A stretch of 64,000 nt of DNA from Longimicrobiales bacterium (GTDB lineage: Bacteria; Gemmatimonadota; Gemmatimonadetes; Longimicrobiales; Gaopeijiaceae), in NCBI GenBank assembly GCA_965218295.1, contig CBDCKN010000015.1:491348-555347 (forward strand), read 5' to 3'. The position numbers and the translations under genes were made by a program. Numbering within the stretch: position 1 is the first letter of the stretch; each line of letters opens with the position of its first letter. This document shows positions 10,200 through 58,210 of this stretch, piece after piece. The notes below the pieces were generated by a model, which was given only the letters and a program-made list of their open reading frames with translations, had not been told where the DNA came from and searched no databases.

Positions 10200-10205
10200 C
10201 ACGCC

Positions 10206-12340: not shown

Positions 12341-12357
12341 AACGAAAGGAGACTCTC

Positions 12358-13266: not shown

Positions 13267-13284
13267 GCCCCGGGAGCGACTGTC

Positions 13285-27870: not shown

Positions 27871-27960
27871 CGCACTTAAGGTGCGTAAGCCAGCCCACGC
27901 AATGTTGAACATTGCGCTCTGGCGAGGGGATGCTGCGCCCCCCTTCGAACCCCCGGCTTC
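27871..27960 (-). other. ColE1-type oriT (nic CTGG^CTTA)
   Basis: TAAGCCAG at 27886-27893 flanked by hairpins CGCACttaagGTGCG and CGCAATGTtgaACATTGCG, followed by GCTGCGCCCC as in the ColE1/pBR322 bom region; directly upstream of mobC. Confidence 0.75.
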
Positions 27961-28028
27961 CCGCGCTGCTGCCGGGGCAGCGGGCGGGCGGGAGCCGCCG
28001 CCCCCCGAACCCCGTCGCCTGTGCGCTC

Positions 28029-28370
28029 ATGGCTGATCGCCGCACCGTCATGGTCGCCGCCCGCGTCACGCCGGCGGAGCATGCCGCTTGGCAAGACAAG
28101 GCGGAAGCGGCGGGCGTGTCGCCGTCCGCGCTGCTGCGGCAGGCGATGGCGCGGACGCGAACGTGGACCGCGCCGGCACTGGCCGTCGAGCGCGAACGCA
28201 GCCGCCAGATCGCGCGCATCGGCAACAACCTGAACCAGCTCGCGCGCTGGGCGAACACGCACGCCTCGGCGGTCGAGGCCGCCGCGGTGATCGCCAACCT
28301 CGTGTCGTTCGAGCGGTCGCTGCTCGCTGCCATGGCCCGCTTCGACGGAGATGGCGGGGATGCACATTAA
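28029..28370 (+). CDS. mobC: MobC/MbeC relaxosome accessory protein
   Basis: RHH-like N-terminus and IARIGNNLNQLAR motif. Confidence 0.9.
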   Translation: MADRRTVMVAARVTPAEHAAWQDKAEAAGVSPSALLRQAMARTRTWTAPALAVERERSRQIARIGNNLNQLARWANTHASAVEAAAVIANLVSFERSLLAAMARFDGDGGDAH

Positions 28371-30300: not shown

Positions 30301-30591
30301 AATGGCAGCCGGACGAGCGGTACTGCCGACGCCCGTTCCGTCGGGATGGCTCCCCTCGGGGTGGCTACTTTGCCTGAGATTGACTATTCAAGGGAGTGGC
30401 CGACACGCGATGGATGACCACGGCCTACGTCGAGGCACGTCGAGCGTTCTGGTGCTATGCGTCAGCACGGGGAATGCAGCCGTACAATCGTCGTCCGGAG
30501 AGTAAAACAGCCAATCGTCGGCAGCCCTCCTACGGGAAGAAATCGGCCCCATCTGATGCAGGCTGCCCCAATCGCAAGATATCCCACTCCG

Positions 30592-31947
30592 ATGCATAAC
30601 AAAATACCCCGTCCAGCAGAACTCGCGGAATTCAGGATGCTTTACCTGGCTTTTACGGAGATAATGCTAGATTTGACTAGCAAACGATATACGGCTGCCG
30701 ACGCGAAACAATTGACTAGAAATATCGCAGCGCAAGAACCATTTATTCCTTCGCCTGATGATGACGACTTTCCGCATGAACTCGCGCAAAAGTGCGCGGA
30801 TGTGTTTTGTTCCTTGGAACTCACCGATTTGAAGCTTTCGGACAACGCCGGAACTCCAATCGAGAATCCGAGTGTCGAACAGCTTCGGCCGTTTATCATC
30901 CATATGGAACTCAATCGTCCGATACGGTACTTGGTACGGGAGTATGGCAAGACATCTTTTTCTAGAGACCAAATTTCAGTTTGTCTAAACAGATACATCG
31001 CCCATTGGACCGGCGAAACAGCGACCGATGCGGAATTCGCCCCGATATATAACTTCGAGACCGATATTCGGGTCATCAAACTCAGTGACCTTGTTTCCAT
31101 TGTGCACTTCACTGACGAAAATAAAAACAAGATTATGAGAACGCTCGGGCCGTTGGAACGGGCAATCGATACACGAAACTACGCTAGTGCCTCTCGGGTG
31201 GCGAGGCTGCGTCCGATTGAAGGCTTTTATGACAAAGAGACGAAGCGCGAAATCCGGGAACACGCACGCAAGAACCTACAATGTGCTGTCACATCGCTGC
31301 GGCTCATGAAGCCGGAGGCAATCGGGACCATGGGATACATCAGATTCCGAGGGCTAGGAGGGGACCGTGGAGCCGGTGTTAGCCCGCAAGAAGAATTCGA
31401 TCTGCCCTGGAACTGGTTTTCGAGTATTCGTGATAGATATGTACTTAATCGCTCAGATCTACCTAGATTCCGCAAGCTCTATAACATGCTGAGTAGAAGT
31501 GAATTTGAAACGTGGGATCGGCTGGCATTGCTGTTGCGTCAATTCAATCGCTCCTGCCAGAGGGAACGAGATGAAGATCGAATACTTGATTACGCGACTT
31601 GCCTTGAGAGCGCGTTGTTATCTGGCGTCAACACTGAATTATCGTACCGTCTTGCACTTCGTGCAGCGAAGCTTCTTCGAGACCAGCGCAATCCAGAGCA
31701 GACCTTCAAACATATACGATGTTTGTACAATGTCAGAAGCAGAATCGTTCATTCGAATGAATCATTCACCAATGCTATGGTAGATACGTATGCTAGGCGG
31801 GTTGGCCTCCGCCCACGCGAGTTCATGCGGTCGACGAACGCATTGATGCGTGAACTGTTGTCTACGGTCATTGAGCATGTGTCCCAGGGGAAGGTTCTCG
31901 CAAAGCTATGCGAAGACCTGGACGATAAAATTGTGAAGTCCCTTTGA
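30592..31947 (+). CDS. HEPN-domain protein (ApeA-like); start uncertain
   Basis: LES.L....ELSYRLALRAA.LL and LYNVRSRIVH (Rx4H-type) motifs; lower GC than flanks. Confidence 0.75.
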   Translation: MHNKIPRPAELAEFRMLYLAFTEIMLDLTSKRYTAADAKQLTRNIAAQEPFIPSPDDDDFPHELAQKCADVFCSLELTDLKLSDNAGTPIENPSVEQLRPFIIHMELNRPIRYLVREYGKTSFSRDQISVCLNRYIAHWTGETATDAEFAPIYNFETDIRVIKLSDLVSIVHFTDENKNKIMRTLGPLERAIDTRNYASASRVARLRPIEGFYDKETKREIREHARKNLQCAVTSLRLMKPEAIGTMGYIRFRGLGGDRGAGVSPQEEFDLPWNWFSSIRDRYVLNRSDLPRFRKLYNMLSRSEFETWDRLALLLRQFNRSCQRERDEDRILDYATCLESALLSGVNTELSYRLALRAAKLLRDQRNPEQTFKHIRCLYNVRSRIVHSNESFTNAMVDTYARRVGLRPREFMRSTNALMRELLSTVIEHVSQGKVLAKLCEDLDDKIVKSL

Positions 31948-32609: not shown

Positions 32610-33926
32610 GTGCGATCTCTCTTGTATGCTGGTCCTTTGACCCAAGTTAAACCCGCCTTGAAGACAATAAAGTTTTCTAAATTAATTGAAGTCTTTCGGG
32701 AAATCTGTGAATTGTCTTCTATACAGAGGTCAAAGCAATCATGGAAATACGATTTTGACCTGTCCTTGACTTTTCTTGAATCACGTTCACTAGACAAGCA
32801 CATTACTTTTGCTTCTCGTAACTTCAAGACGCTGCCTTTGAATAGCGAAAGGCATCTGTACGAAATGAATGACATTGTCATTCGAAATCTCCAAATCAAT
32901 CTCGACGATCAAAAGGGATTGACTATCCATGATGACTGGCACCCGCTCTCCTTCGCAAAGTGGCATTTTGAAAATTGCCACTTTGCATCTTCATCCGTGA
33001 ATATGTGGCACATCGGCTTTCCTTGGCGTGGCTCCTTCCGGTTTTACAAGAACGACTTTGATTTTCCATTACGACATCCTGGAGGTCGTTGGTCGTTTGG
33101 TTTTGCGGAGGGAAGCAAAATCTTGTTTCAAGGGAACGATTTCAAGCGAAATAATGCCCAGATTGGCTTCACGACTTCCGGGACAGATCGAGACGCAACT
33201 GATAGGGAACATTCTACCCGGCATAGACTAGGAAATTTGTCACTTGTGGGAAACAAGGGAATACAGGAGTTGCTAGTACTGGAAGGTTGCCCATCCGTAT
33301 TGTTTTCTGGAATGAATCGTATAGAGAAATTGTCTTTATCACAATTGTCGGAGGGAGGACAGATACGGAATGTAACGGTATATTTTGGGCCGCGTGAAAA
33401 GATAGATTCGCAATTTCACTACTGTATGCATCACAGACGTCTGTTTATGTCCGTGAAGGATCTGGCAGCAATGAACCACGACACACGCCAAGAAAACGTA
33501 TTGGATAAACAGCTAGAACGCATCGAGTATTTTTTTAATAAGGAACAAGATACTCCGTCGCCGGCGGATTATCGTATTTCGATCGAGTACTGGCAGGACA
33601 GAGTGTTGTACGCGTGGAGGCGGTGGTCATCAGATTTCTACAGATCCTGGTTGCGCCCCCTAAGCATGATTGTACTAGGCTATATGCTGTTGAATGCGAT
33701 ACCAGTGTTGTTTATTGATACTTTTTCTCTCTCCCAGTGGATCGAGCTTACTCTTCGTCCGATAAGCGACATCGCCAGATATGAGGAGAAAGTGAGTCAG
33801 ATACTTTCGAGTGACTATGCCATGGTTTCTGTATCAGAGCGGAATATATTGAGACTTGTTGGCTTGATCGAAGTGATTTGGATTGCTATGTGGAGTTTTG
33901 CTTTCGCGAAGGCCATAAGGAAATAG
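32610..33926 (+). CDS. Hypothetical low-GC protein with C-terminal TM helices; start uncertain (possibly 32865)
   Basis: Long AT-rich ORF; SDFYRSWLRPL motif followed by TM segments. Confidence 0.65.
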   Translation: MRSLLYAGPLTQVKPALKTIKFSKLIEVFREICELSSIQRSKQSWKYDFDLSLTFLESRSLDKHITFASRNFKTLPLNSERHLYEMNDIVIRNLQINLDDQKGLTIHDDWHPLSFAKWHFENCHFASSSVNMWHIGFPWRGSFRFYKNDFDFPLRHPGGRWSFGFAEGSKILFQGNDFKRNNAQIGFTTSGTDRDATDREHSTRHRLGNLSLVGNKGIQELLVLEGCPSVLFSGMNRIEKLSLSQLSEGGQIRNVTVYFGPREKIDSQFHYCMHHRRLFMSVKDLAAMNHDTRQENVLDKQLERIEYFFNKEQDTPSPADYRISIEYWQDRVLYAWRRWSSDFYRSWLRPLSMIVLGYMLLNAIPVLFIDTFSLSQWIELTLRPISDIARYEEKVSQILSSDYAMVSVSERNILRLVGLIEVIWIAMWSFAFAKAIRK

Positions 33927-34060: not shown

Positions 34061-35291
34061 TGTACAGAGATGGTAATGACCTGACAGTTGGCCCTCGCCG
34101 GAGCTGTGTCTAGGCTGCCTTCGTCTTAGCCTCCTCCTTCCTGGCCTTTGCGGCCTTCCTGGCGTCGGTGAGACCGGCCTTGAAGACCTGATAGGGCGTG
34201 CGGCCCTCCATGGCTCGACCGCGGTGCGGCCGCTTCCGGTTGTAGGTCTCCAGATACGCCTCGAGGTCCTGCTGCATCTCCTCGACGGTCTCGTACCAGG
34301 TGGTGCGGCCCTTCACCCTCAAGTGCTCGTCGAGGAGCGTGCGGTGGAAGCGCTCGATGAAGCCGTTGGACTGGGGCCTGCCCACCTTCGTCGTGCGGTG
34401 CTCGATGTCCTCGAGCTGAAGGAACAGCTCATATGGGTGACGGTCCGGACGGCCGCAGAACTCGCGGCCGTTGTCGCTGAGCACGGTCTTCACCCGGACC
34501 CGGTGCTCATCGAAGAACGGCAACACGTCGTTATTCATCACCTGCACCGCCGTGAGCGGGAGCTTGCTCGTGTAGAGCCGGCCCCAGGCGTAGCGGCTGA
34601 AGCAATCGAGCACGGTCTGCAGGTACACCTTGCCGACCCCCTTCAGCGTTCCGACGAAGAACGTGTCCACGGCGACGAGGTCGCCCGGGTAATGGACTTC
34701 GATGTGGCGCTCCCGGAACTCGGGACTGAAGCGCTCCAGCAGCTCGATCTGCTCGTCGGTCAGCTTCAGCTTCCGTTCCCTGGCCGTCTCTTCGAGCCTG
34801 AGCAGCCGTTCGTGCTTCGTGGTGAGGCCATGCCGGCTCCACACGCCCCGTACGCCTCCTGAGCTCACCTGGATCCCTCCGAGCAGCAACTCGTCCGCGA
34901 CCCGCTGAGCTCCGTGCGTCGGAGCCTCCAAGGCGTGGGCCAAGACCGCCTGCTCAATCTCTTCACTCACCCGGTTCGGGTGCGGTCCCTTCGGCCCCGG
35001 AAGCTGGTCGATCAGCCCCTCGGCCCCGTAAAGCTGGAAGTTCCTCCTGATCTCGTAGAACTGCTGCCGGCTGTAGCCCACGATCTTGCACGCCTTGCTC
35101 ACGTTGCCGAGCTCCTGGGCCAACTGTAGCAGGCTCAGCTTGCGGCGCGCTATCTTCTCCCCCTGGACGGTGGTCATCTTCTCTCCCGTGCTAAGTGAGT
35201 GACTTCGACATCTCTCAATTAGCTCCGGCGAGGGCGGCTGGCCACCGTCCTCTCTCGTGGTCAACTGTCAGGTGAATACCGTCTCAGCACA
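34061..35291 (-). mobile_element. IS481-family element
   Basis: TGT...ACA ends with imperfect 30-bp IRs; 7-bp DR CGCCGGC at 34054-34060 and 35292-35298. Confidence 0.93.
34110..35177 (-). CDS. IS481-family transposase
   Basis: LAQELGNVSKAC HTH; VDTF, SDNGREF and SNGFIERFH DDE motifs. Confidence 0.93.
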   Translation of the reverse strand: MTTVQGEKIARRKLSLLQLAQELGNVSKACKIVGYSRQQFYEIRRNFQLYGAEGLIDQLPGPKGPHPNRVSEEIEQAVLAHALEAPTHGAQRVADELLLGGIQVSSGGVRGVWSRHGLTTKHERLLRLEETARERKLKLTDEQIELLERFSPEFRERHIEVHYPGDLVAVDTFFVGTLKGVGKVYLQTVLDCFSRYAWGRLYTSKLPLTAVQVMNNDVLPFFDEHRVRVKTVLSDNGREFCGRPDRHPYELFLQLEDIEHRTTKVGRPQSNGFIERFHRTLLDEHLRVKGRTTWYETVEEMQQDLEAYLETYNRKRPHRGRAMEGRTPYQVFKAGLTDARKAAKARKEEAKTKAA

Positions 35292-36501
35292 CGCCGGCGA
35301 GGTACGCGGCCCAGTCGTCCATGAGCCGGCGCCGGCGCTCGAACAGATCCGTGCGCCGGTAGGCCGCCTCGACCGGGTTTCGGACCTTGTGTGCCAGCGC
35401 CGCCTCCACGACCTCGCGGGGATGATCCGTATCTTCGGCCGCCCAGTCCCGGAAACTCGACCGGAACCCGTGCGGCACAGCCGCGATCTTTAACTCCCTG
35501 AGCAGTTCCGACAGCGCCGTGGTCGCAATGGGGTTTCTGCGCAGGCCTGGAAACACGAGCGGGCTGCCGCGATCGAGCACCCGCGCCTCCTCGAGGATCT
35601 CCAGCGCACGCCGGCACAGCGGGACCCGGTGCTCGCGCGCCGCCTTCGTGCGTCGGGCCGGGATGATCCACGCACCCTCGCCCCGGTCGATCTCCGTCCA
35701 GAGCGCCCCACGCACCTCGCCGGAGCGTGTCGCCGTCAGCACCAGAAACTCGAATGCCAGCTTCACGACCGGCCGCGCGTTCGACCTCCGCACCGTCTCG
35801 ATCGCCGCCGACACCTGGCCGTGCGGCAACGCCCGCATGTGTCGAACGACGCCCCCCTGCGAACCGAGCACCGGGCCGATCCGGTCGCACGGGTTGTCGG
35901 GCCTGAGACCCATCGCCACCGCCCACTCCATGACCGCGCGGATGCGCTGGCGCAACTTCCGGGCCGTGGGCGGCATGTCGTGCCAGATCGGAGCGAGGAT
36001 CCCGATCACGTCGGCGCTCGTCACCTCCGAAATCGGCATCTTCCCGATGCGAGGAACAGCGTAGCGCTCCAGGCTGCTCAACCAGAGCTGCGCATGCTGG
36101 GGGGAGCGCCAGCCCGGCCGCAGCTGCTTCCAGACCTGCCGGGTCGCGTCCGCGAAGGTGGGCGTCGACTCGACCCGCTGCTTCTCCGACAGGGGATCGC
36201 CTCCCTCGCGGGCGAGCTTCCGGTTGGCGAACGCCTGCTCTCGGGCTTCCTTCAGCGAGACCAGGGGGAATCCGCCGAGCCCGAGCTCGGTTCGGCGGCC
36301 GCGGATCGTGAGGCGCTGGATCCAGCCCCGGCTGCCCGAGGGCCGCACATCGAGATAGAGGCCCTGGCCGTCACAATAGCGTCCGGCCTGGCTCACGTTG
36401 CGCACGAAGGCAGGCGTCAGGGCGTTGTTGGGATGCCGGCTGCGCGGCTTGCGTTGCGGGGGTCGTGTGGGGAGTGTTATACATACCAATATATCCACCA
36501 C
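35284..36501 (-). CDS. P4-like tyrosine integrase 1 (last codons replaced by IS481)
   Basis: Arm-binding domain (DGQGLYL...LGLGGFP.VSLKEAR), TATRSGEVR, HGFRSSFRDW, ALAH and catalytic AAY. The original end YLAGGSRE* lies beyond the IS. Confidence 0.93.
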   Translation of the reverse strand: MVDILVCITLPTRPPQRKPRSRHPNNALTPAFVRNVSQAGRYCDGQGLYLDVRPSGSRGWIQRLTIRGRRTELGLGGFPLVSLKEAREQAFANRKLAREGGDPLSEKQRVESTPTFADATRQVWKQLRPGWRSPQHAQLWLSSLERYAVPRIGKMPISEVTSADVIGILAPIWHDMPPTARKLRQRIRAVMEWAVAMGLRPDNPCDRIGPVLGSQGGVVRHMRALPHGQVSAAIETVRRSNARPVVKLAFEFLVLTATRSGEVRGALWTEIDRGEGAWIIPARRTKAAREHRVPLCRRALEILEEARVLDRGSPLVFPGLRRNPIATTALSELLRELKIAAVPHGFRSSFRDWAAEDTDHPREVVEAALAHKVRNPVEAAYRRTDLFERRRRLMDDWAAYLAGVC

Positions 36502-37388: not shown

Positions 37389-38573
37389 ATGCGCAAACGA
37401 CCCCTTACGGCCGCCTTCGTGGCGCGGGTGAAGACGCCGGGACGCTACGGCGACGGCGGGATCGGCGGGCTCGGCCTGTACCTCCGCGTCCACCGGATGA
37501 AGTCCGGGCGCGTCTCCAAGTCTTGGGGCCAGCGCATTCGAGTGGCGGGGAAGCCCACCAATCTCGGACTGGGCTCGTACCCGGTCGTGACGCTCAGGGA
37601 GGCGAGGGAGAAGGCGCTGGAGTACAGGCGGGCGGTCCATTGGGGCCACGACCCGAGAGACGCGGGGGTTCCCACGTTCGAGGCGGCCGTCGAGAAGGTG
37701 ATCGCGATCCACTCGCCGACCTGGAAGAACCCATCCCGCATGGCCGGGCAGTGGCGGCAGACGCTGCGGGACTACGCACATCCGCGCATCGGCCGGAAGC
37801 GCGTGAGCGAGGTCGCGACGGCCGACGTGCTCGCCATCCTCAAGCCCATCTGGTCGAGCAAGCCCGCGACCGCGAGGGCCGTGCACCAGCGGATCGGCGC
37901 GGTGATGAAGTGGACCGTCGCGAAGGGCTACCGGCCGGACAACCCGGCGGGGGACGCCATCGCCGCCGCGCTGCCGCGTAACGGCAACGCCATCCGGCAT
38001 CACAAGGCGCTCCCGCACGGCGAGGTGGCGGCGGCTCTGGCCAAGGTCCGCGACTCGGAGTCCCATGCCGGTGTCCGGCTGGCGCTCGAGTTCATGGTCC
38101 TGACCGCGACACGCTCGAACGAGGTCCGGGGCGCGGCGTGCGACGAGGTCGAGCACGATGTCTGGACCATTCCCGCCGACCGCATGAAGGCGAAGCGCGA
38201 GCACCGGGTTCCCCTGTCGGGGTGGGCCTTGGAGATCCTCGAGGAAGCCCGGAAGCTCCACGGCGGCGGCGGGATCGTGTTCCGGGGCGCGAAGGGAGGA
38301 AGGATCCACGCCTCCATGTTCAGCAAGTCGCTCCGGCGTCTCGGCATCGCAGGAACGCCCCACGGGATGAGGTCCTCGTTCCGCGACTGGTGCTCGGAGA
38401 CGGGCGTGGCGCGCGAGGTGGCGGAGGCGGCGCTCGCACACAAGGTCCGCAGTCAGGCCGAGGCCGCCTACGCCCGCTCGGACCTGCTGGACCGGAGGCG
38501 CGAGGTCATGCAGGCCTGGGCCGCGTATCTCGCTGGCAAGCGTCGAGACCCGGAGGCCGAACCGATCCGCTGA
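37389..38573 (+). CDS. P4-like tyrosine integrase 2
   Basis: Arm domain, TATRSNEVR, HGMRSSFRDW, ALAH and AAY motifs; GATACAC repeats upstream. Confidence 0.93.
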   Translation: MRKRPLTAAFVARVKTPGRYGDGGIGGLGLYLRVHRMKSGRVSKSWGQRIRVAGKPTNLGLGSYPVVTLREAREKALEYRRAVHWGHDPRDAGVPTFEAAVEKVIAIHSPTWKNPSRMAGQWRQTLRDYAHPRIGRKRVSEVATADVLAILKPIWSSKPATARAVHQRIGAVMKWTVAKGYRPDNPAGDAIAAALPRNGNAIRHHKALPHGEVAAALAKVRDSESHAGVRLALEFMVLTATRSNEVRGAACDEVEHDVWTIPADRMKAKREHRVPLSGWALEILEEARKLHGGGGIVFRGAKGGRIHASMFSKSLRRLGIAGTPHGMRSSFRDWCSETGVAREVAEAALAHKVRSQAEAAYARSDLLDRRREVMQAWAAYLAGKRRDPEAEPIR

Positions 38574-42898: not shown

Positions 42899-43348
42899 AT
42901 GCTGAGACACCGAGAGAGAATGAAAGAGAATGGAATAGCCCCACCAACCTGGGACGGTAAGCGAAGCGCGGCAGCTCCTGCGGACTCGGAGGTGGTAGAT
43001 AGGCCGCTGCGCCGGCGGTTCGCTCCGTCGTACAAGCTGCGGATCGTCGAAGAAGCGGACCGGTGCACGGAGCCCGGAGAGGTTGGCCGACTCCTACGGC
43101 GGGAGGGCTTGTACTCGTCGCACCTGACGACATGGCGCAAGGCGGCGCATAGCGGGTCCCTGAAAGCGCTGTCGAAGAAACGAGGCCGTAAGCGCGAGCG
43201 CAATCCGCTGGAGGAGAAGGTGCGCAAGCTGGAGCGCGAGAACACTCGCCTCGAGAAGGAGCTCCAGAAGGCGCACTTGATCATCGACGTCCAGGGAAAA
43301 GTTGCAGGGCTGCTGGGATTGAGCCTCGAGGACGGGACGAACTCATGA
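42899..43348 (+). CDS. IS3 transposase OrfA
   Basis: HTH plus leucine zipper; in-frame G-GGA-AAA heptamer at 43294-43300. Confidence 0.9.
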   Translation: MLRHRERMKENGIAPPTWDGKRSAAAPADSEVVDRPLRRRFAPSYKLRIVEEADRCTEPGEVGRLLRREGLYSSHLTTWRKAAHSGSLKALSKKRGRKRERNPLEEKVRKLERENTRLEKELQKAHLIIDVQGKVAGLLGLSLEDGTNS

Positions 43349-44352
43349 AGGCGACCCAGGAGCTAGCCAAGCACGTAGGGGTGAAGCCCGCGTGCGATGC
43401 GCTCAGGGTGCCGCGAGCCACGTTCTACCGTCGTCGGAGGCCATCGACCGGGCATCAGCAGCCCCGCCCGACCCCCGCCCGGGCCTTAAGCGAGAAGGAA
43501 CGAGACAAGGTCTTCGACACGCTGTGTTCGGAGCGGTTCGTGGACCGGTCCCCAGCCGAGGTGGTGGCGACGCTGCTCGACGAGGACGTCTACCTGTGCA
43601 GCGAGCGTACGATGTATCGCGTTCTGGCTTCCCAGGTGCCGGTTCAGGAGCGTCGAGCGCAGCGGAGTCATCCCAAATACCAGAAACCCGAGTTGATGGC
43701 GAGGGGCCCGAACCAGGTCTGGTCCTGGGATATCACCCGGCTGCTGGGGCCGAAGAAGTGGAGTTACTTCTACCTCTACGTGATCCTGGACATCTTCAGC
43801 CGCTACGTCGTGGGATGGATGGTGGCGGATCGGGAGAACTCTGCCCTGGCCAGCCGGCTGATCCAGCAGAGTTGCTTGAAGCATGGCGTCCAGCCCCACC
43901 TCCTGACCCTGCATTCCGATCGAGGGGCTCCGATGACGAGCCAATGCACGGCTCAACTACTCGCCGATCTCGGCGTGACCCGCTCGTTGGGCCGACCCCA
44001 GGTCTCGGATGACAATCCGTTCTCCGAGGCTCAGTTCAAGACCTTGAAGTACCATCCCTCGTTTCCCGGCCGGTTCGGGGATCAGGGGCAAGCCAAGACC
44101 TTCTGTCGCTCGTTCTTCCGTTGGTATAATGCCGAGCACCGCCATGGCGGCATCTCGATGCTGACCCCCGAACAGGTCCACTTCGGTCACGCCGATCGGA
44201 TCATCGCCTGCAGGAAGGCCGTGCTCCGTGAGGCATGGGCCGCTCATCCCGAGCGCTTCGTCTCCGGTGAGCCGAAGCCTAAACCACTCCCGGAGGCCGT
44301 CTGGATCAATCCTCCCACCCCATCCCTCACTACACAGGAGATTGCTCTCTAA
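43345..44352 (+). CDS. IS3 transposase OrfB (DDE)
   Basis: WSWDIT, HSDRG and NPFSEAQFKTLK motifs. Confidence 0.95.
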   Translation: MKATQELAKHVGVKPACDALRVPRATFYRRRRPSTGHQQPRPTPARALSEKERDKVFDTLCSERFVDRSPAEVVATLLDEDVYLCSERTMYRVLASQVPVQERRAQRSHPKYQKPELMARGPNQVWSWDITRLLGPKKWSYFYLYVILDIFSRYVVGWMVADRENSALASRLIQQSCLKHGVQPHLLTLHSDRGAPMTSQCTAQLLADLGVTRSLGRPQVSDDNPFSEAQFKTLKYHPSFPGRFGDQGQAKTFCRSFFRWYNAEHRHGGISMLTPEQVHFGHADRIIACRKAVLREAWAAHPERFVSGEPKPKPLPEAVWINPPTPSLTTQEIAL

Positions 44353-45119
44353 TTGATTTCCAAGAGTGTCTCACTGGCGTTGACAGGTTCCGAACCGGCC
44401 GGGAAACGAGGGATGGTACTTCAAGGTCTTGAACTGAGCCTCGGAGAACGGATTGTCATCCGAGACCTGGGGTCGGCCCAACGAGCGGGTCACGCCGAGA
44501 TCGGCGAGTAGTTGAGCCGTGCATTGGCTCGTCATCGGAGCCCCTCGATCGGAATGCAGGGTCAGGAGGTGGGGCTGGACGCCATGCTTCAAGCAACTCT
44601 GCTGGATCAGCCGGCTGGCCAGGGCAGAGTTCTCCCGATCCGCCACCATCCATCCCACGACGTAGCGGCTGAAGATGTCCAGGATCACGTAGAGGTAGAA
44701 GTAACTCCACTTCTTCGGCCCCAGCAGCCGGGTGATATCCCAGGACCAGACCTGGTTCGGGCCCCTCGCCATCAACTCGGGTTTCTGGTATTTGGGATGA
44801 CTCCGCTGCGCTCGACGCTCCTGAACCGGCACCTGGGAAGCCAGAACGCGATACATCGTACGCTCGCTGCACAGGTAGACGTCCTCGTCGAGCAGCGTCG
44901 CCACCACCTCGGCTGGGGACCGGTCCACGAACCGCTCCGAACACAGCGTGTCGAAGACCTTGTCTCGTTCCTTCTCGCTTAAGGCCCGGGCGGGGGTCGG
45001 GCGGGGCTGCTGATGCCCGGTCGATGGCCTCCGACGACGGTAGAACGTGGCTCGCGGCACCCTGAGCGCATCGCACGCGGGCTTCACCCCTACGTGCTTG
45101 GCTAGCTCCTGGGTCGCCT

Positions 45120-45569
45120 TCATGAGTTCGTCCCGTCCTCGAGGCTCAATCCCAGCAGCCCTGCAACTTTTCCCTGGACGTCGATGATCAAGTGCGCCTT
45201 CTGGAGCTCCTTCTCGAGGCGAGTGTTCTCGCGCTCCAGCTTGCGCACCTTCTCCTCCAGCGGATTGCGCTCGCGCTTACGGCCTCGTTTCTTCGACAGC
45301 GCTTTCAGGGACCCGCTATGCGCCGCCTTGCGCCATGTCGTCAGGTGCGACGAGTACAAGCCCTCCCGCCGTAGGAGTCGGCCAACCTCTCCGGGCTCCG
45401 TGCACCGGTCCGCTTCTTCGACGATCCGCAGCTTGTACGACGGAGCGAACCGCCGGCGCAGCGGCCTATCTACCACCTCCGAGTCCGCAGGAGCTGCCGC
45501 GCTTCGCTTACCGTCCCAGGTTGGTGGGGCTATTCCATTCTCTTTCATTCTCTCTCGGTGTCTCAGCAT
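45120..45569 (-). CDS. IS3 transposase OrfA (copy 3)
   Basis: Same protein as 42899-43348. Confidence 0.9.
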   Translation of the reverse strand: MLRHRERMKENGIAPPTWDGKRSAAAPADSEVVDRPLRRRFAPSYKLRIVEEADRCTEPGEVGRLLRREGLYSSHLTTWRKAAHSGSLKALSKKRGRKRERNPLEEKVRKLERENTRLEKELQKAHLIIDVQGKVAGLLGLSLEDGTNS

Positions 45570-47783: not shown

Positions 47784-48773
47784 ATGGTAGCAGAGCACCA
47801 GCCAAAAAAAGCCCATACCTATCTGGTAAGGTTGCAAGTACGGATCGGAAATTACCTCAATACGGATGCGGAGCGTTTGACCGCTACGGTCTGGGACCGG
47901 GAGGTGTCGATAATCTCACGGACGGGTCCGCTCTCAAAGGCTGACTGGCTCGTTATGCAAGCTCGAGGGTTTCCATCCGAAGCGGACGCGAGCGAGTTTG
48001 GCGAACGACTGCGACTGCTCGTCTTGATCGCAGGCCTCTGCTCGCATCTCGGTATCGATCCGGGCCGAGACGAAACGCGTGGGCAGTTCACGGAGGCAGG
48101 CCTTCGCGTGATGGGGTTCGAGCCCGGCTTGAGGGCGCCGCCCGAGATCCACGGAATCTCCGTCGTTCCGGACGATGGAAAGTCCGTATTCATCTACTCG
48201 AGCATGTCCGCGTCCGTGACTAGCGACCCCGCACAGCTGCTGGGCGCCGTGGAGGAACTCTCAGAGGTGGCAGAGTGCGACGCAGGCGAGTACGCCACAT
48301 CCCTAGTTCTCGCTCTACGTCTTCTCAATCTCGCGATGATGTCAGACGACCGCCGGGCGAGGATCGTACTTGCGATCTCCGCAATCGAAGGATTAATACA
48401 GTCTGAGAAGTGGAGCACTAAGCAACGGCAATGCATAGACGATACCGTTACAGCACTCCGAAGGGCAGAAGATAGCGATCTCGCTGAGATCGCTGACCGC
48501 TTGCAGGGCATACAGCGAATCAGCATTCGGCAAGGCGTAACTCGCCTCTTGGACGAAAACGGACGCCCTGACCTTAGGGTGCGATGGGATGAAATCTATG
48601 GCCAACGGAGCAAGCTGTTTCATGGCGGCGCGCAGGTCGGCCAGCATGAACTAAACCAAATCTCCCAAGCTACCGTGAAGCTCTGCGTTACGATCGTCCT
48701 GTCTATTTGCAAGAACAAAGGTATCGAGTTACCCGAAATTGCCGAAGTGCACTTTCCCGACCTTCAAGCTTGA
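47784..48773 (+). CDS. HEPN-domain protein (ApeA-like)
   Basis: AISAIEGL and IYGQRSKLFHG (Rx4H-type) motifs; AAGGA RBS. Confidence 0.72.
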   Translation: MVAEHQPKKAHTYLVRLQVRIGNYLNTDAERLTATVWDREVSIISRTGPLSKADWLVMQARGFPSEADASEFGERLRLLVLIAGLCSHLGIDPGRDETRGQFTEAGLRVMGFEPGLRAPPEIHGISVVPDDGKSVFIYSSMSASVTSDPAQLLGAVEELSEVAECDAGEYATSLVLALRLLNLAMMSDDRRARIVLAISAIEGLIQSEKWSTKQRQCIDDTVTALRRAEDSDLAEIADRLQGIQRISIRQGVTRLLDENGRPDLRVRWDEIYGQRSKLFHGGAQVGQHELNQISQATVKLCVTIVLSICKNKGIELPEIAEVHFPDLQA

Positions 48774-49635: not shown

Positions 49636-49974
49636 CTAGGTCTTTCTCGCTGGCCCGACGACAATTCGCCCGCGACCTCGTTTGACCACATAGCCCTGAG
49701 GACGAATCCTAAGCTCCCCTTCCTGAACAAGAGCCCAGAGACTCTCAGCGATCAATTCGGCGTTCCGATCCGTCTCTTTCGTGGCTGCCTGTGAGGACAG
49801 CCACTCGACGAACGCCCGCCCCCCGATATCTTGGCCGACCGACCTGCGAAGTGCGTTCAGCTTGCGGAGTTGCCCTTTCGTGAGAGCGCTCTCGTCAATA
49901 TTCCTCGATGTCTGCCCTATAGCTCTTCCTTTCCATGGTACTGTGTGCTGAGATGATGGTTTGACATTCGTCAA
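49636..49974 (-). CDS. Small basic hypothetical protein (start uncertain)
   Basis: LTKGQLRKLNALRRSVG...GYVVKRGRGR; protein-like ORF overlapping the HNH gene stop. Confidence 0.55.
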   Translation of the reverse strand: MTNVKPSSQHTVPWKGRAIGQTSRNIDESALTKGQLRKLNALRRSVGQDIGGRAFVEWLSSQAATKETDRNAELIAESLWALVQEGELRIRPQGYVVKRGRGRIVVGPARKT

Positions 49975-50987
49975 CCTGGATGCTCTGGCTCCCTCCGATT
50001 CCTTAACTCAGAGATACAGCTATCCCCTATGTTATATAAGTGCCCCGACACACGGAGGTCGGCCGCCCGCTGTTCGGAGAGAGCGATCTGATACCGGAAA
50101 CCGCCAAACAGCAACACCTGCCCAATGACTGCATCTGTGCCAACTGCCCTTTCCACGGTGACGACGTGTACAACAGGTCGGTCTCCATCTGGGGTGTTAG
50201 GGGGCAGAGGTATCGGGAACTCATCGTCAATGTCAACCAAGTTCTCGCCGCCTTCTCCGTAGCGGATGAATCTCCTCGATACGTTGAACTGCGGGCGTAA
50301 CGCGAACTGTCCACCATTAATGTAGGCCAGGTAGTTGAATGAAATCTTTGCTACCGCCCGCCGAAGGTCCCTCGTAAACTCAGCCACTTGCACCACCGGA
50401 GCTTCGTCACCCGACTCTCCGTCTCGGACCATCTGACGCCAGTTTGGGAACGACACTCCCTGTTCTTCGAGATAGGCTCTCACTGACTCGTGATCTCTCG
50501 CATAGACCTTAATTCCGGCCTGTGGGTTCAAGTCATTACGATTTTTCCAAGTGCCCTCAGAGACTTCATCGAGCCCCATCCAGACGAACCCATCCTCCTC
50601 GCGCCGAGCAAACCCAACTTGATCGATAGGTGTCGCGCGAAATCCATTCGAGGCTTCAAGATCGGCGGTCAGACGCAGCAAGCATCCCTGGTAGTCACCT
50701 GCTCCATTGTACCGGAACGTAACGGAGTCATATTTGAACTGCTCGATCTGTTCCGACGGGCGAACATTCCAGACATATCGTTGGAACCCCTCATCGGAAC
50801 CGCGCGCCAAGGTAAGGTCGAGGTTGGCTCCAAAGTAGGTGTTGCAGCTCTCGCATACGCAGTCAGCAAGAACGAGGGCGGCGTTGAAGCTGCCGAATGC
50901 GGCGGGGACAACATGTTCCCGATTGAACTCCGCCGCAGGTTTCGGCTCAAGGCAGTAGATACACTGCAGTTGTGAGTCGCCGGGCAT
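49971..50987 (-). CDS. HNH endonuclease domain protein
   Basis: CIYC...EHVVPAAFG...VCESCN..F N-terminal HNH motif. Confidence 0.82.
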   Translation of the reverse strand: MPGDSQLQCIYCLEPKPAAEFNREHVVPAAFGSFNAALVLADCVCESCNTYFGANLDLTLARGSDEGFQRYVWNVRPSEQIEQFKYDSVTFRYNGAGDYQGCLLRLTADLEASNGFRATPIDQVGFARREEDGFVWMGLDEVSEGTWKNRNDLNPQAGIKVYARDHESVRAYLEEQGVSFPNWRQMVRDGESGDEAPVVQVAEFTRDLRRAVAKISFNYLAYINGGQFALRPQFNVSRRFIRYGEGGENLVDIDDEFPIPLPPNTPDGDRPVVHVVTVERAVGTDAVIGQVLLFGGFRYQIALSEQRAADLRVSGHLYNIGDSCISELRNRREPEHPG

Positions 50988-52731: not shown

Positions 52732-53445
52732 GCCCCTAACGGTGAGGAGCCGTTTGCAAGGAAGTCAACCCGTAGAAAACCTCCTAAATGCCTGTGGCGT
52801 TCAGAGACGTTCAGTACGGTACAGGGGCTGTTGGACACCGCCGCCAGCGGCTTGCCAAACGCCCCGTCGGCCTTCGCCGAAGGCTCCGTCAATGGGTGCG
52901 GATCTCGACCGGACGTCGGCCTGCGCACGAACGATGCTGGGAATCTTCGAACCGGAGTGCCGTGTTCCGGGTCTGCGGCAGTCCGCAGCCGCGTTACTGC
53001 GGCAGATAGCTTGGGCGGGCCTATCTGGACGGGTCACAGCCGAAACCCTCCCCCGCGGCTTCGGCGGCGTCCGCCGGGCTGGCGAAGGGTGGCTCCGCCC
53101 CCCTTCGATCCCCCGGACGCCCGCGCTCCGGCGGAGTTCGCGGGCGGGGGGCTCGCCCCCCGTCCCTCTTGCCGGTGCGTCCTGAGTCGCGCGCCACACG
53201 AAGGACATATGGCGGCAGGCAGCTGCTGGAGTCGGTTGAGGGGACGCGGACTAGGAGAGGCCACTAGAGGTCTCGTCGGCCAAATCAATGGGGAACTCGC
53301 CGAGGACACACGAGCAAAGTCTGCGCTCCGAACAGCCCTGCAGGCTCACCGTGGAAAACCAGGCAATGTTGATCCCAAAGCGCTGGCCGCGTAGTAGTCG
53401 GACCGCACCGACGCGGCGCATGTCAATATCCGTCGGGACGACCCC

Positions 53446-54304
53446 TCACTCGCCGAGCAGGTACTTGAAGCCGAGCATCATCGACCAGGGATTGATGCGA
53501 CTGATTTCGGTGTCGTTCATTATGGGAAACGGATGCACCTCGTAAGGACTCGTGTCCACAAGGTCGTCGACCCAGCTGTAGGACGCCTTCAGGCCGAGTA
53601 GGAGCTTGTCGCCCAAACGATTAGTCGGCACCGGCAAAGAGCTGCTTGGAAAGACCGCTGTCGGACAGATCAACGTCCTGCAGACTGTTGTACTCCGCCG
53701 CGGGACGACCGCCGCATGGCTGACTAATGCACGAGTATTCGCTGCTGAAATACAGCCCCGACAGCTCGACGAAGGACAGGCCCAGTCCGGCGCCCAGGTA
53801 AAGCATGACCCGGCTTTCTGCGAACGCGAAGTCGTGATAGGCGTTCAGGGACAGCGTGCGCGCGGCCAAGGCATCGACCCTGGTGGTGTTGGTCGACGTA
53901 TAGTTGCTGTCTTCGTTAGGCAGGATCGGAGATCCATCGAGAAAGGTAATGTCGGTGAACTCTTGCTCGATGTTGTTCGATCGCTGGGAGACCGACACCT
54001 CCACGCGCACGTCGTCGAAATCTCGACCGAAGGCGACTTCAAAAGCAGTACCGAGATCCGAGGGAAGGTCGTAAAACCAGCGGTAGCCCTCCGGCGTGCC
54101 GCTGCAAAGGTCATTCGGGTAACAGATATTGTCCCGGTTATGGCCCGCCTGCTCCATCACGGGATTCCAGTTCGTCCCGCCGCTCGCGCTCACGTACCAC
54201 CCGTAAGACCCCGGCTGTTGACCCGCACCTTGTTCCGCTCGGCCGAGCAAGGTGCAGATCGCAAGCGTGGCTCCGAAGGCGTGTAACTGCCAGGACAAAG
54301 GCAT
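53446..54304 (-). pseudogene. Outer-membrane beta-barrel protein with a +1 frameshift
   Basis: Signal peptide; LNAYHDF and YLGAGLG motifs. GAC TAA T would read GAC TAT (ADYRLGDK) without one extra A near 53621; ends LGFKY. Confidence 0.75.
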
Positions 54305-55113
54305 TTGAGTCACCTCCAGTTGAGTCCGATGGCCTTCATTTGAGGATACCGCCTCCCAAGGACCCCGATCAACGGATCCCACACTATCGAGCCGGTAACG
54401 GGAGATTCCAATCGCCCCACGCGGGGGGTAGCCCAGGAAATGGCCCGCCTCCGCGTGGCAGATTCATGGCGACGAGCACATGGCTCATCCCCACCACGGC
54501 GGCTGCGCTGGCAAGGCCGAGCTGGTCTTGGCTCCTCCCGTAGCAACGGGGAGCCAAAGCTTCCGCCGTGAAGCGGTGGAGTAGAAGGCGGCCTCATTCT
54601 GCCTTGTCACGGCTTCGCTTGAAGTCCATCGGAGACTGATAGTCGATTGGAGCTGGCGCGAGTGGCAAGTCCAAGAGGGCCGTGGCGCAATCGGCGGAGG
54701 CGCGCAGCACCTTCTGGGCTTGATCCAGTTTCGTGGACGGTTTAGCTCGGCTGCCAGCCGAGCCGAGCCGAGCGTCGAGTGTCGGCACTGCTGTCTTAAT
54801 CGCCATCGTCGGCTCAGGTTCGACGAACGTGCGCATTGACGATCCCCGGGCCGCCGAGCTCGCCAGCTAAGATCCATGGTTGTAGTCTGCACCCACGACG
54901 CATGGACAGGAGACCCACACCGCACACGGGCAATTCCGGGAACTTGCTCAGGGCCCAGTCAACGACGGCAAGAGCCTCAGCTCGATCCATGCTCGGACTC
55001 TAGTTGGGATTCATGTACCAAAAACATGGACTCCTACCGTGGTGGAGCGAGGGGTTACGGATAACTAGGCTGCTTTCCTAGGAGGTCGCAGGCTGGGTAC
55101 CCTGTTGCTGCAA

Positions 55114-56712
55114 CTAACCTAGTATCACCTGATGAATACGATCATCCTTGACCGCAGACAGGAAGACCCTCGCCCATTCTGCATTCGTGGAGAGACTGTT
55201 TGCCGCTACGATGAGGTCCGCCCGAAAGACAACGGGGCAGGCATTCCAGAGGCGCATAAACGCCTCACGACTCAGCTCCCTTTGGGCACTCAGAAGCTTG
55301 GCTACCTCGGTTGCTGCGAGCCACGAATCGAAAGGTGACGTGGTCAGCGCCTCCAGTTGCGAGACGACCCACTCCGGCAACTGATCCGCAACGGAGGTTA
55401 AGACCCGGGCAACCCACGCCACCTCCCACTCCGTGCGGAATCGCCCGGCTTTCAAGGTCTTGCTCGCCTGCGCGGCGACCTTCTTGGGTTCTGTTCCCGC
55501 CAGCGCGAGAAGATACGAGCATACAACCTCCGATTTCTCGGGATATGAAGTGAGGATATCGCCTGCTGCCCCCAGCGCTTTGGGAGAGCGCCCCGCTGCC
55601 AACCTGACCAATGAAGCGACAATCCTCTGATGAAAGGCATCGCTAGCAAGAGCGTTGGGTTTACCGGGTCTCCGCTCCCACGTTTCTGCAAAAAGGTCCT
55701 CGGCAATCTCGACCGCATTCGGCTCGAGTGACGGCCGCAACTGGTCAATAACTTCCTGCAATGACACGTTCCCATGATAGAAGAAATCCCACCCGAGCTG
55801 TTCCATGTCAGCAAGATCGATGGCCGTGTCTAGCGCATCCGGATCATCCTCTAGCGTTGCGAATTTCTTGCTGAGGACCTTGCTTCGCACATCGGTAATC
55901 GACTTCTCAATTGACTGGACGGCATCCTTATAGGTTGATGCCTTCAGCACTCTCGTCTTGTGTCCACTTAGGAGCAGGCCCGCGCTCCGCACGCATGCTT
56001 CAAGGGTGTATAAGGCACCGCGAGCATCGTCGTAGCCTTTCATCGCGACGCGGAAGTCGTCCCCATGTCGCGTGTAAGCGAATCCATTACGTATCATCGC
56101 GAAATCCAGCTCTGCTAGATAAGCTGTGGCGAGCGGGTCTGAAGCATCGAGCCCCTGAGGTAGGCCACGGGAGCCGCCCATCACTCTCGTCAGGAAATGG
56201 GATAGCGCCTCGACTTCAGCTCGCTTGCCAGTGGCTCGGATCAATCGCTCGGCCAAGCGCCTATGGTCCACCGATTCGTAGAAACCCGAGACGTCAGCGA
56301 GGACCACATACTTGCATGAATCGGTGAGCGGCGAGTGCTCGAACTTGAGCCAGCTCTTGTTACGCTGTAGACCTCGGGGCCAGAAGACGATTTCTTCGCC
56401 GAGAAGGTAACTGTCGATCCGCGAACGTAGCGTAGCCACCAAGGCTGCATAGACGACTCGGTCGTTGAGCGTCAGTAGGGCCGCGGGACGCGTCGCAGAT
56501 GTGGATTTCGGCACCCTGACGGTATATGCAGGAGCCGGATCATATCTCCCGCGTTCGAGGTCGCGTATCAGAGCCTGAAGAAACCTGTTGCCAACCTCCC
56601 CGCCTACCTTGTCCTCAGCTCGCGGCGGCAGCAGATCGTTTCTTTCCGATCCATTAGTCAATGCGGCGGCTAGATCGAGCTGGTCAACAACATTTTGATA
56701 GGGTGTCGGCAT
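55114..56712 (-). CDS. UG/Abi-like (defence-associated) reverse transcriptase with helical C-terminal domain; start uncertain (56712-56760)
   Basis: VPK...RP, DRVVY, ADVSGFYESVDH, GLPQG..AS..LA..YL..LD, RHGDD and GLLL...KT motifs; long alpha-helical-looking C-terminus. Confidence 0.88.
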   Translation of the reverse strand: MPTPYQNVVDQLDLAAALTNGSERNDLLPPRAEDKVGGEVGNRFLQALIRDLERGRYDPAPAYTVRVPKSTSATRPAALLTLNDRVVYAALVATLRSRIDSYLLGEEIVFWPRGLQRNKSWLKFEHSPLTDSCKYVVLADVSGFYESVDHRRLAERLIRATGKRAEVEALSHFLTRVMGGSRGLPQGLDASDPLATAYLAELDFAMIRNGFAYTRHGDDFRVAMKGYDDARGALYTLEACVRSAGLLLSGHKTRVLKASTYKDAVQSIEKSITDVRSKVLSKKFATLEDDPDALDTAIDLADMEQLGWDFFYHGNVSLQEVIDQLRPSLEPNAVEIAEDLFAETWERRPGKPNALASDAFHQRIVASLVRLAAGRSPKALGAAGDILTSYPEKSEVVCSYLLALAGTEPKKVAAQASKTLKAGRFRTEWEVAWVARVLTSVADQLPEWVVSQLEALTTSPFDSWLAATEVAKLLSAQRELSREAFMRLWNACPVVFRADLIVAANSLSTNAEWARVFLSAVKDDRIHQVILG

Positions 56713-56850
56713 TCGAAGGAATGTGGAGGATGACATCATATCCGCGATCGTGAGATTCATCGGCGGGTTGCGCAATCTCCGACATGTCGGCGATCCGCTC
56801 CCGCCCCAACGTCCCAGCCAGGCAGGCTGACCGACCTCGCCTGACTCCCC
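56713..56850 (-). ncRNA. Candidate structured leader/ncRNA of the RT
   Basis: TATAGT -10-like box at 56854-56859; hairpin CAGGC/GCCTG; long GGCGGG...CCGACATGTCGG...CCCGCC stem (56762-56805). Confidence 0.35.
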
Positions 56851-57596
56851 GATACTATAACGTCCATGTGCTGTGCGACGGCCTTGCGCTGCCGGAAAAG
56901 AGTGGGTCCTGCACGTGGGGTAACTCCCACCGGATCGAGATGCGCCTAGCCGCTCGCCCATGCCCCTACCACCGCAGGTCCTGCTGGCGAGCATCGGCGG
57001 CTACCCCCAGCGTGGTGGACACGATCCTGTCTATGCCGCTCGCGCCGCGATTCCCGAGCACACGCGGATCCCAAGTCGCGCACCCCTCCGAAGTCGTCCA
57101 AATCGCCAAAGGGCACCGCCTCGAGGACGTCCGGCCCATGGCTGTGAAACGGAAAGAATGTGCCACCAAGCGATGCAGCGAACCCCTACGTCGGTCGCTC
57201 GAAGTGTGGTGCAGATTACGCCGGGAGGTTGTGGGCCGGTCGTCTCGAGCTTGCCCATGCGGGTCACCGGGCCCCGATTGTACTATCCTACGCGATGCCC
57301 CGGCCGACCTTCCATTCCCAATGCCTCGATCCGGTCCGGGCTCACGGCCGGAAGCCGCAAGATGAATTGCTCCGGTAGCGTCACGCCCCTTCTGGCAGTG
57401 GATGCCAACGCGGCGGCATATCCAATCACGGCAGATCCCGACCCCGATAATGTGGACCACGGACTCCCACATGTCGACCGCCCATTCCGTCGTATGTCGA
57501 TCACTCTGGGAGGGCGAAGGTCCAGAGCGGTGCTGGGGTCGTGGGTTTGAGGGTTGAAGTTAGGAGGTGGAGGGGATCGTTATCGAGTCGTACAGC

Positions 57597-57775
57597 TATC
57601 GCATGGAAGCGCGCTCGAGTACAATGCGACGGGTGTTGTTGAGGAGTCGGTCGAGGATGGCGTCGCCGAAGGTGCAGTCGCCGGCAAGCTCGTGCACCAG
57701 TGCTGACGGAGACTTGTCTGGCCTTGAGCGTGCCACACCGAGCGTAGCGAGCATCCAGAACCTCGAGGAGCCATA
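57597..57775 (-). pseudogene. IS21 IstB remnant
   Basis: LLEVLDARY and GDCTFGDAILDRLL...SMR pieces. Confidence 0.7.
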
Positions 57776-57864
57776 GTCATCTATATGATGTCACTGGAAT
57801 GATTTTGCACATCGGTCCAAGTAGTCTACCTATTCCCGCCCATGCTGACCTCCCTGTAGCTGGG

Positions 57865-58210
57865 ACCAGGTGCCCGGATCCTAACATCCGCCCTGGTCTC
57901 GTTTCAGGGGGGCAGATCACTCGAGTGCGAGCTTCTCGACCGCAAACGCTTCCAGGCGCAGGCCGAGGCGAAGATGGCCGTCTTCGCCTTCATCGAGGGC
58001 TTCTACAACCCGCGCAGGAGGCACTCCTCTCTCGGCCAAGTCTCGCCGGTCAACTTCGAACGCCGCCATGCCCGGGAGGCCGCCGCATGAGCGCCCCCTA
58101 CGCCCGGTTCTTTACTCCCCCGCTTCGCGGGGGAAGATTCCTTCTCCCTCGGGCGAGGGATGTAGTGAAAACCTCAGTGTTCACCCGTCCACGAAAGCGG
58201 GACAGCTCCA
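57865..58210. mobile_element. Fused IS3-family fragments (IS407-like left end plus an orfB 3' end with IRR)
   Basis: CCTGGTCTCGTTTCAGGGGGGCAGATCA end; LECELLDR...FIEGFYNPRRRHSSLG..SP; end CCGTCCACGAAAGCGGGACAGCTCCA. Confidence 0.75.

Follow-up and report, generated by a model that had tools for sequence, protein, structure and literature searches.

An intact single-gene UG22-group reverse transcriptase with an HGDD motif C in a Longimicrobiales genome

An intact single-gene reverse transcriptase (RT) was identified in a 64,000-nt stretch of DNA from a Longimicrobiales bacterium (assembly GCA_965218295.1, contig CBDCKN010000015.1, positions 491,348 to 555,347; hereafter the window). By profile it belongs to the UG22 RT clade, and its HGDD at motif C is, judging from the sequences of its relatives, a conserved lineage trait of the whole branch. 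We consider it moderately likely that the enzyme is a stand-alone, oligomeric, protein-primed and template-free single-stranded DNA polymerase acting in abortive defence. The sequence and the model show that the catalytic triad, the fingers and the steric gate are intact and that the fold matches DRT6, DRT4 and AbiK over the full length; no recurring partner gene or conserved flank was found, and the gene has moved horizontally. According to this proposal, a UG22 Class 1 RT that stands alone and is predicted to form oligomers would likely prime DNA synthesis on a tyrosine of its own, with Tyr328 as the candidate. The product would likely be covalently attached ssDNA made without a nucleic-acid template, and a phage protein that stabilises or binds the RT-linked DNA would likely bring about abortive infection. 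We infer the priming, product, trigger and killing step by analogy; the characterised single-gene Class 1 enzymes are described as protein-primed and template-free (PMC12783706, PMC9508834, PMC13174585). The group is already catalogued as UG22, and its likely mechanism is known from DRT4, DRT6 and AbiK.

The RT frame contained no stop codon across 548 amino acids. Most relatives start at the position of Met17 (56712), and the 532-aa product from this codon may be the working protein, in agreement with the intact RT of about 530 aa described in the first-pass annotation. The RT ends at a TAG codon, while a near-identical copy from a related genome, with an identical HGDD motif, has CAG at this site and reads 12 residues further. 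The change from CAG to TAG therefore accounts for the 12 missing C-terminal residues, which belong to a tail that is unconserved among relatives. Compared with one close copy only, pN/pS was 0.50, from 15 changes. The protein includes YTRHGDDFRV, in which the previously reported RHGDD is present, and in the alignment its HGDD is in register with the YADD of group II intron RTs. Pfam RVT_1 matched residues 83-272 (E 3e-13), and this was the sole RVT_1 match genome-wide. A sigma-70 promoter scan returned 0 sites. The positions of the features are listed in Table 1.

Table 1. Features of the RT gene and its immediate surroundings, in window positions
Feature	Position	Strand	Basis
UG22-group Class 1 UG/Abi RT, 548 aa from upstream ATG, 532 aa from Met17	55114..56760	-	Profile, model and fold matches
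N-terminal motif NDLLPPRxED, residues 41-50	56611..56640	-	Conservation among relatives
Fingers Lys85...Arg91, dNTP-binding hairpin	56488..56508	-	Each 47/47 core representatives; aligned with group II RT fingers
FWPR motif, residues 126-129	56374..56385	-	Common to UG22-like proteins, missing from UG21-like outgroup
Motif A: catalytic Asp156, aromatic steric-gate position Tyr161, His166	56263..56295	-	48/48 each
Motif B GLPQGxxxSDxLAT, with invariant Asp208 at 56137-56139	56125..56166	-	Alignment with DRT3b base-reading Arg; conservation
Motif C His232-Gly233-Asp234-Asp235 (HGDD)	56056..56067	-	Sequence and conservation
WDFFYH motif, residues 324-329, in helical insertion; Tyr328 at 55777-55779	55774..55791	-	Conservation; helix 320-328 in model
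C-terminal alpha-helical repeat (alphaRep) domain, about residues 349-547	55120..55716	-	AF2 model, fold matches
TAG stop where near-identical copy has CAG	55114..55116	-	Copy comparison; 12 unconserved residues lost
Block of outer-membrane-protein-like gene and RT, about 4-4.6 kb	53076..57696	.	97.9% identical elsewhere in two same-family genomes
IS21 istB and IS3 transposase remnants, upstream of RT	57617..58070	.	Neighbour analysis

The absence of an intron, retron, DGR or cas context, asserted from the letters of the window, was borne out by the searches. The RT reached 81.8 of the 300 bits needed for the group II intron maturase cut-off and 23 of 235 bits for the retron cut-off, and none of the NCBIfam DRT, retron or maturase cut-offs was reached. 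No retron VTG motif was detected in the RT protein, and no Rfam match within the 64-kb window. Between 52 and 60 kb there was no CRISPR array and no DGR TR/VR pair or long near-identical repeat, the longest direct repeat family being 37 nt at 68-70%. The five neighbours of the RT gave no PADLOC matches, including to cas1.

The best PADLOC match of the RT was RT_UG22 (335.2 bits, profile positions 4-473 of 476), followed by UG21 (172.5 bits). UG22 was likewise the best profile for all nine tested RTs from HGDD loci, while UG21 was the best for the three outgroup RTs. All 12 distant representatives tested also scored UG22 best, although ten of these were without xGDD. Thus, UG22 is broad and HGDD marks a part of it. 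UG22 was placed in Class 1 of the UG/Abi RTs by Mestre et al. (2022; PMC9226505), where a HEPN-like neighbour (cluster 79) is predicted for it and its defence prediction is called inconclusive. The earlier designation as a UG/Abi RT therefore stands, with a class and a group added, while the DRT label, which implies proven defence, and the altered template or primer use suggested with it are putative. The RT shares with UG22 (PADLOC PDLC03760) the end-to-end profile match and the RT plus alphaRep architecture. It differs in that this branch has no HEPN neighbour, in that the protein is about 50 residues longer than the profile span and carries the WxxFYH insertion, and in motif C, which is xGDD in this branch but YADD, FADD, YSDD, YTDD or CSDD in other UG22-scoring branches. 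Proteins P0176-P0260 of these other branches displayed YADD, FADD, YQDD, FSDD, CSDD, CQDD, HNDD, HNDE and RVDD, and a clade of YADD proteins of about 620 aa has a 100-residue N-terminal extension and retains a WxxxYH motif.

The suggestion of a possibly uncharacterised lineage was half right: the group is catalogued in PADLOC and by Mestre et al., but we found no reported test of it. The accessible text of a 2026 review (PMC13213688) lists DRT1-9, and UG22 is not among them. In the literature searched, which leaves out most subscription papers, no report on the activity or phage defence of UG22 was found, the single paper retrieved on UG22 RTs being that of Mestre et al.; none on UG22 as a defence-associated RT dates from 2023 onward. 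No on-topic title on HGDD as an RT motif was found there.

HGDD was present in 116 of 121 proteins (the query and the best 120 of 218 matches), the others having NGDD (three), LGDD (one) and YGDD (one). A profile search run without a word index was evaluated for the best 150 of 16,785 matches, and motif C was covered in 141. Among these 141, HGDD occurred in 68, another xGDD in 21 and other forms in 52, including YADD (19), FADD (6), FSDD (4) and YSDD (4). Motif frequencies were taken from these protein searches (121 and 141 proteins) because the locus counts are biased, one search pattern having contained HGDD.

A FastTree phylogeny was calculated for 137 RT domains with two motif residues masked, comprising 121 of 151 rows and 16 outgroup loci; the rows left out were fragments lacking required motifs. 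The query fell within a 57-row clade (SH-like 95) with xGDD throughout, the first motif position being His in 44 rows, Asn in six, Tyr in four, Arg in two and Lys in one (13/57 non-His). This clade was nested in a 121-row UG22-like clade (SH-like 98), labelled by the PADLOC matches of its members, of which the 12 tested matched UG22 best. Eleven longer proteins with HGDD formed another group that branched separately, and xGDD required six changes on the tree, three of them forced by strong branches. A private mutation or sequencing error as the origin of HGDD is thus ruled out by the conservation among relatives, the clade and the near-identical copies, so that the private-mutation or error case named in the first-pass annotation as a refutation does not hold.

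In all 48 full-length core representatives, Gly233, Asp156, Asp234, Asp235, Gln202, Asp208, Tyr161 and Tyr277 were conserved, while His232 was found in 37. The invariance of the catalytic and pocket residues indicates that the active site is under selection. The contrast between Gly (48/48) and His (37/48) argues against a catalytic His, and the special role initially placed on the His could not be upheld; the Gly is better read as the special residue of the motif, as far as conservation tells. The fixed change is the Gly, and the first position accepts planar or hydrogen-bonding side chains. Across UG22 branches the normally fixed YxDD varies beyond expectation (HGDD, NGDD, YADD, FSDD, CSDD, HNDD), and an active enzyme of this kind would be the first working RT family without the aromatic residue of YxDD within the literature searched.

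The AF2 model of the RT (42-row alignment, pLDDT 92.5, pTM 0.88) consists of an RT core, then a long helix and a helical insertion that together span 274-345, and finally a domain of helical repeats. It is helical throughout beyond residue 274, which confirms the helical C-terminal region noticed previously. Foldseek ranked DRT6 first and DRT4 next. With VIA-align, DRT6 (9wy8) gave Z 22.4, rmsd 3.8 and 433 aligned positions over residues 31-547, UG15 (DRT4; 9l9s) Z 20.1 and 441 aligned positions, with DRT4 structures spanning Z 18.9-20.1, and AbiK (7r07) Z 20.0 and 445 aligned positions over nearly the whole chain. Group II RTs reached Z 21.2, within about one Z unit on the RT part, with the alignment ending near residue 364. 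An alphaRep domain fused to the C-terminus of the RT, the mark of Class 1, was seen in the model and the fold matches. The RT was 10-16% identical to the Class 1 enzymes of solved structure.

A two-copy prediction of residues 22-519 scored 0.71 against 0.00 for the best control, with at least 97% of contacts shared between runs and pLDDT of at least 80; of the chains used for comparison, 20 of 30 solved pairs but 1 of 23 single chains attained this mark. The predicted contact is RT-RT, with the conserved Glu254 (47/48) and Arg258 (46/48) at the interface, and an RT-RT contact has been described between the trimers of DRT3b (PMC13174585). The RT is predicted to oligomerise, and the two-copy result may echo its likeness to solved hexamers.

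Among known systems, DRT6 (UG12) and DRT4 (UG15) are likewise single genes, provide the closest full-length structures and share the predicted RT-RT two-fold contact. In contrast, identity to them is 12-13%, RHGDD replaces FRYVDD and RYIDD, and PQG replaces PIG. Unlike DRT4, the window RT has neither a Tyr at the priming site nor the Asp of the RNase dyad, and it scored 27.7 of 450 bits with NCBIfam Drt4 and 36 bits with PADLOC Drt4. AbiK, AbiA and Abi-P2 have the RT and helical domain fold in common over nearly the whole chain, but identity is 10-16%, AbiK primes on Tyr44 of an N-terminal loop where the window RT family has no conserved Tyr, and a HEPN fusion of AbiA type is missing here. DRT3b (UG8) shares the Class 1 fold, and the window RT has a charged, invariant residue at its switch position; however, this residue is Asp rather than Arg, and there is no DRT3a partner or ncRNA and no C-terminal priming Tyr tail.

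The priming tyrosines reported are Y44 in the N-terminal loop of AbiK (PMC9508834), Y125 of DRT4 (PMC12783706) and Y666 of DRT3b (PMC13174585). The RT family alignment contained no conserved counterpart of any of these, and no conserved Tyr in residues 126-141, the DRT4 priming position before motif A. Of 119 rows, 111 had Tyr at position 328 and none had Phe, and a Tyr occurred somewhere within 322-333 in all 119. The other conserved tyrosines accepted Phe (Tyr161 in 9/131, Tyr277 in 12/142 and Tyr416 in 3/138). This difference points to Tyr328 as the best candidate for a protein-priming residue, with Tyr416 as the second candidate. The insertion with Tyr328 was missing in 23 representatives, three of them with HGDD. 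For the killing step, the RNase of DRT4 requires His160 and Asp192 (bioRxiv 10.64898/2026.10.21.760695; 10.64898/2026.10.27.754916). The counterpart of this His, His166, was conserved (48/48), while the aligned Asp position 191, mapped by sequence only, was Gly, Thr, Ser or Asn. Since this position is variable, a DRT4-type RNase effector lacks support in the window RT.

The Tyr of YxDD in DRT4 (Y238) forms a stack with the 3'-terminal base (bioRxiv 10.64898/2026.10.21.760695), and in DRT3b Y276 and V277 touch the ribose of the 3'-terminal nucleotide while R241 reads the base and acts as specificity switch (PMC13174585). Because the Tyr-X pair holds the 3'-terminal nucleotide in both enzymes, His-Gly would alter the -1 pocket. 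We infer a pocket remodelled by a planar or hydrogen-bonding residue and a vacancy, which would not add a catalytic His. In M-MuLV RT, the Y222A and Y222S changes at this motif position almost abolished activity (PMC8640165), and low activity of the HGDD RT is therefore possible. The products of Class 1 DRTs are reported to be random, purine-biased or protein-templated DNA, each set by few active-site residues. A compact single-gene RT with the candidate residues Tyr328, Asp208, His232 and Gly233 thus bears on how the -1 pocket sets the product.

The remodelled pocket might itself read bases, with Asp208, Asp42 and His-Gly enforcing a homopolymer or short repeat, so that the RT would be a single-gene, protein-templated polymerase. 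We regard this as unlikely. Asp208, invariant in the core representatives, aligned with the Arg of GPEFSR in a Drt3b homologue at a profile alignment probability of only 16.6, and this Arg corresponds by spacing to the R241 switch. Moreover, the purine bias of DRT4 is set by the N-terminal Q23 and D29 (bioRxiv 10.64898/2026.10.21.760695; 10.64898/2026.10.27.754916), and a loose analogy with DRT4 D29 and DRT3b E22 makes Asp42 a candidate for contacting the incoming base. However, Asp208 is common to UG21-like YVDD proteins and is therefore not tied to HGDD, the His is freely swapped for Tyr, Asn, Arg or Lys, and the register of Asp42, a part that the profile alignment did not reach, is uncertain. 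If true, a homopolymer or repeat primed on Tyr328 and dictated by the pocket would be a new protein-only sequence code, independent of RNA or a partner.

The preferred reading of a stand-alone polymerase was then weighed against the genomic context. In an all-against-all comparison of neighbours from 58 loci, no recurring neighbour protein was detected in the main branch, in support of the single-gene status given before. Beyond close kin, blastn of 55 upstream and 46 downstream flanks revealed no conservation, and RNA folding of the RT flanks was no better than for shuffled sequences (z 0.67 and 0.79). Flank blastn, Rfam and folding revealed no conserved ncRNA; one conserved in structure alone may have escaped them. 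In L001 and L047, the start of the RT directly adjoins other genes.

Alternatively, the RT might be half of a system whose effector (a HEPN protein or another) or RNA is supplied from elsewhere, the window copy being an orphan; the probability of this is small. It would agree with the published link between UG22 and a HEPN-like neighbour (PMC9226505) and with the presence of a probable HEPN gene at a distance of 6.3 kb from the RT. The 329-aa product of this gene (47784-48773, + strand) has RxxxxH near its end and gave no Pfam or PADLOC match; the nearest annotated Atlas clusters were MauJ and HEPN_Apea (0.90-0.91), an Atlas lead by which it probably encodes a HEPN protein. The 338-aa product of the other nearby gene (49971-50987, - strand) carries an HNH_5 domain at its N-terminus. 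The first-pass annotation had set the RT among HEPN, HNH and R-M genes; these genes are indeed in the window, but the HNH and HEPN genes lie 4-6 kb and the R-M genes at least 28 kb away. The HEPN and HNH genes had matches in 0 of 95 loci and did not occur in the 19.9 kb examined around each of two RT copies with 98% identity, so that they do not travel with the RT and a functional link was rejected. No adjacent HEPN candidate was found in the window, and the RT lies outside the predicted UG22-HEPN two-gene pair. Among 59 scanned neighbours no HEPN Pfam family was detected, HEPN domains often escaping Pfam. The dependence on an outside RNA is likewise opposed by the folding result and by the genes abutting the RT start, although the roughly 700 bp that precede the RT (56761-57450), in which no gene or RNA was recognised, are 98% conserved in close copies. 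The window RT bears on whether UG22 defends without its predicted HEPN partner.

One HGDD sub-branch of seven loci (three distinct) also fits the half-system, since its RT is fused to a wHTH and always preceded by the same gene. The fused RTs (L048:3009-6506, L050:1972-5440 and L057:2033-5550) carry an N-terminal MarR-like winged helix, and the upstream gene (425-469 aa) has a predicted nitrilase-like (carbon-nitrogen hydrolase) structure, at a family share of 11-13% a lead only. If true, the pairing of a nitrilase-like protein with a Class 1 RT would parallel the DRT1/DRT5 architecture in another class. Relationship of this partner to the HEPN-like gene of the window was rejected (E 0.16).

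At 10 of 25 loci, a gene with a defence-type Pfam family lay no more than 5 kb from the RT (59 of 93 candidate neighbours scanned, 'defence-type' being a judgement and no background control applied). The families included R-M S subunit, Sir2-HerA, Mrr, TIR, AlbA_2, AAA_15, NERD and others, while several RT loci were surrounded by housekeeping genes. At L010:3405-6256 a Sir2-HerA pair lies immediately downstream of the HGDD RT. Other Class 1 RTs (L082-L087) occur in several window-family genomes, one of them near DRT6 (E 1e-68 to 9wy8).

The RT gene is patchy and horizontally mobile. It was matched in 3 of 251 family genomes and 2 of 401 phylum genomes; in two other groups, matches occurred in 4 of 401 and 1 of 401 genomes. 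Its GC content is 57.3% as compared with 64.8%, and its direct neighbours are an outer-membrane-protein-like gene (53621-54382) and IS debris. Copies of the block formed with this gene sit at other positions, without the HEPN-like or HNH genes. None of 11 pattern matches on viral contigs was confirmed, and among plasmids RT matches were limited to two distant records. Attachment-site-like (attC-like) hairpins were found about 20 nt before the RT start and over the stop codon in L029, and on one side in L030, L031, L033, L034 and L038. The RT might thus be an integron cassette; this is left as a sequence-based suggestion because the attC detector is loose, shuffled sequences giving similar site counts, and no integron integrase was seen at these loci.

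A slim probability is given to a polymerase, active or weakly active, with a non-defence role such as repair-type terminal addition, or to selfish, often decaying cargo. The RT was split in 7 of 58 loci (two of them one sequence), an IS lies within the RT of L014, one 98%-identical copy is frameshifted, and the defence prediction for UG22 was, as mentioned, inconclusive. Some splits could, however, be due to assembly errors, and patchiness with frequent loss also fits defence, as costly defence genes are typically patchy and often lost. The characterised Class 1 relatives described in the accessible text of PMC12783706, PMC9508834 and PMC13174585 are all defensive. Split, shortened or IS-interrupted RTs occurred in L004, L011, L014, L015, L016, L021, L043, L058 and L099, and a programmed frameshift behind the split copies was rejected since the breaks are at differing positions.

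A shift to ribonucleotides marked by xGDD is highly improbable: GDD is the motif of viral RNA-dependent RNA polymerases and one relative had a faint RdRP_1 match (E 0.33), but the aromatic steric gate Tyr161 is kept (48/48), matching DRT3b F187, and the structural matches are RTs.

The region of the window in which the RT lies is mobile and also harbours genes for conjugation, a relaxase and integrases, besides IS elements and Type I and Type ISP-like R-M genes. The conjugation genes (VirB4-like, CagX, TrbI, TrbL) are located with MobC and the relaxase at 7899-14295 and 27912-29880, and together with the integrases at 35284-36501 and 37389-38573 look like one or more integrative elements. A complete Type I R-M operon (M, S, R) occupies 20816-26639 (- strand), and a Type ISP/IIG-like R-M gene at 1093-6192 (- strand) is divided in two, an IS256-family transposase gene separating the parts. 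Two low-GC genes (30457-31947 and 32610-33926, + strand; 496 and 438 aa) without Pfam or PADLOC match are candidate cargo. At 43345-45569 the same IS3-like transposase gene occurs twice, head to head, with one copy truncated.
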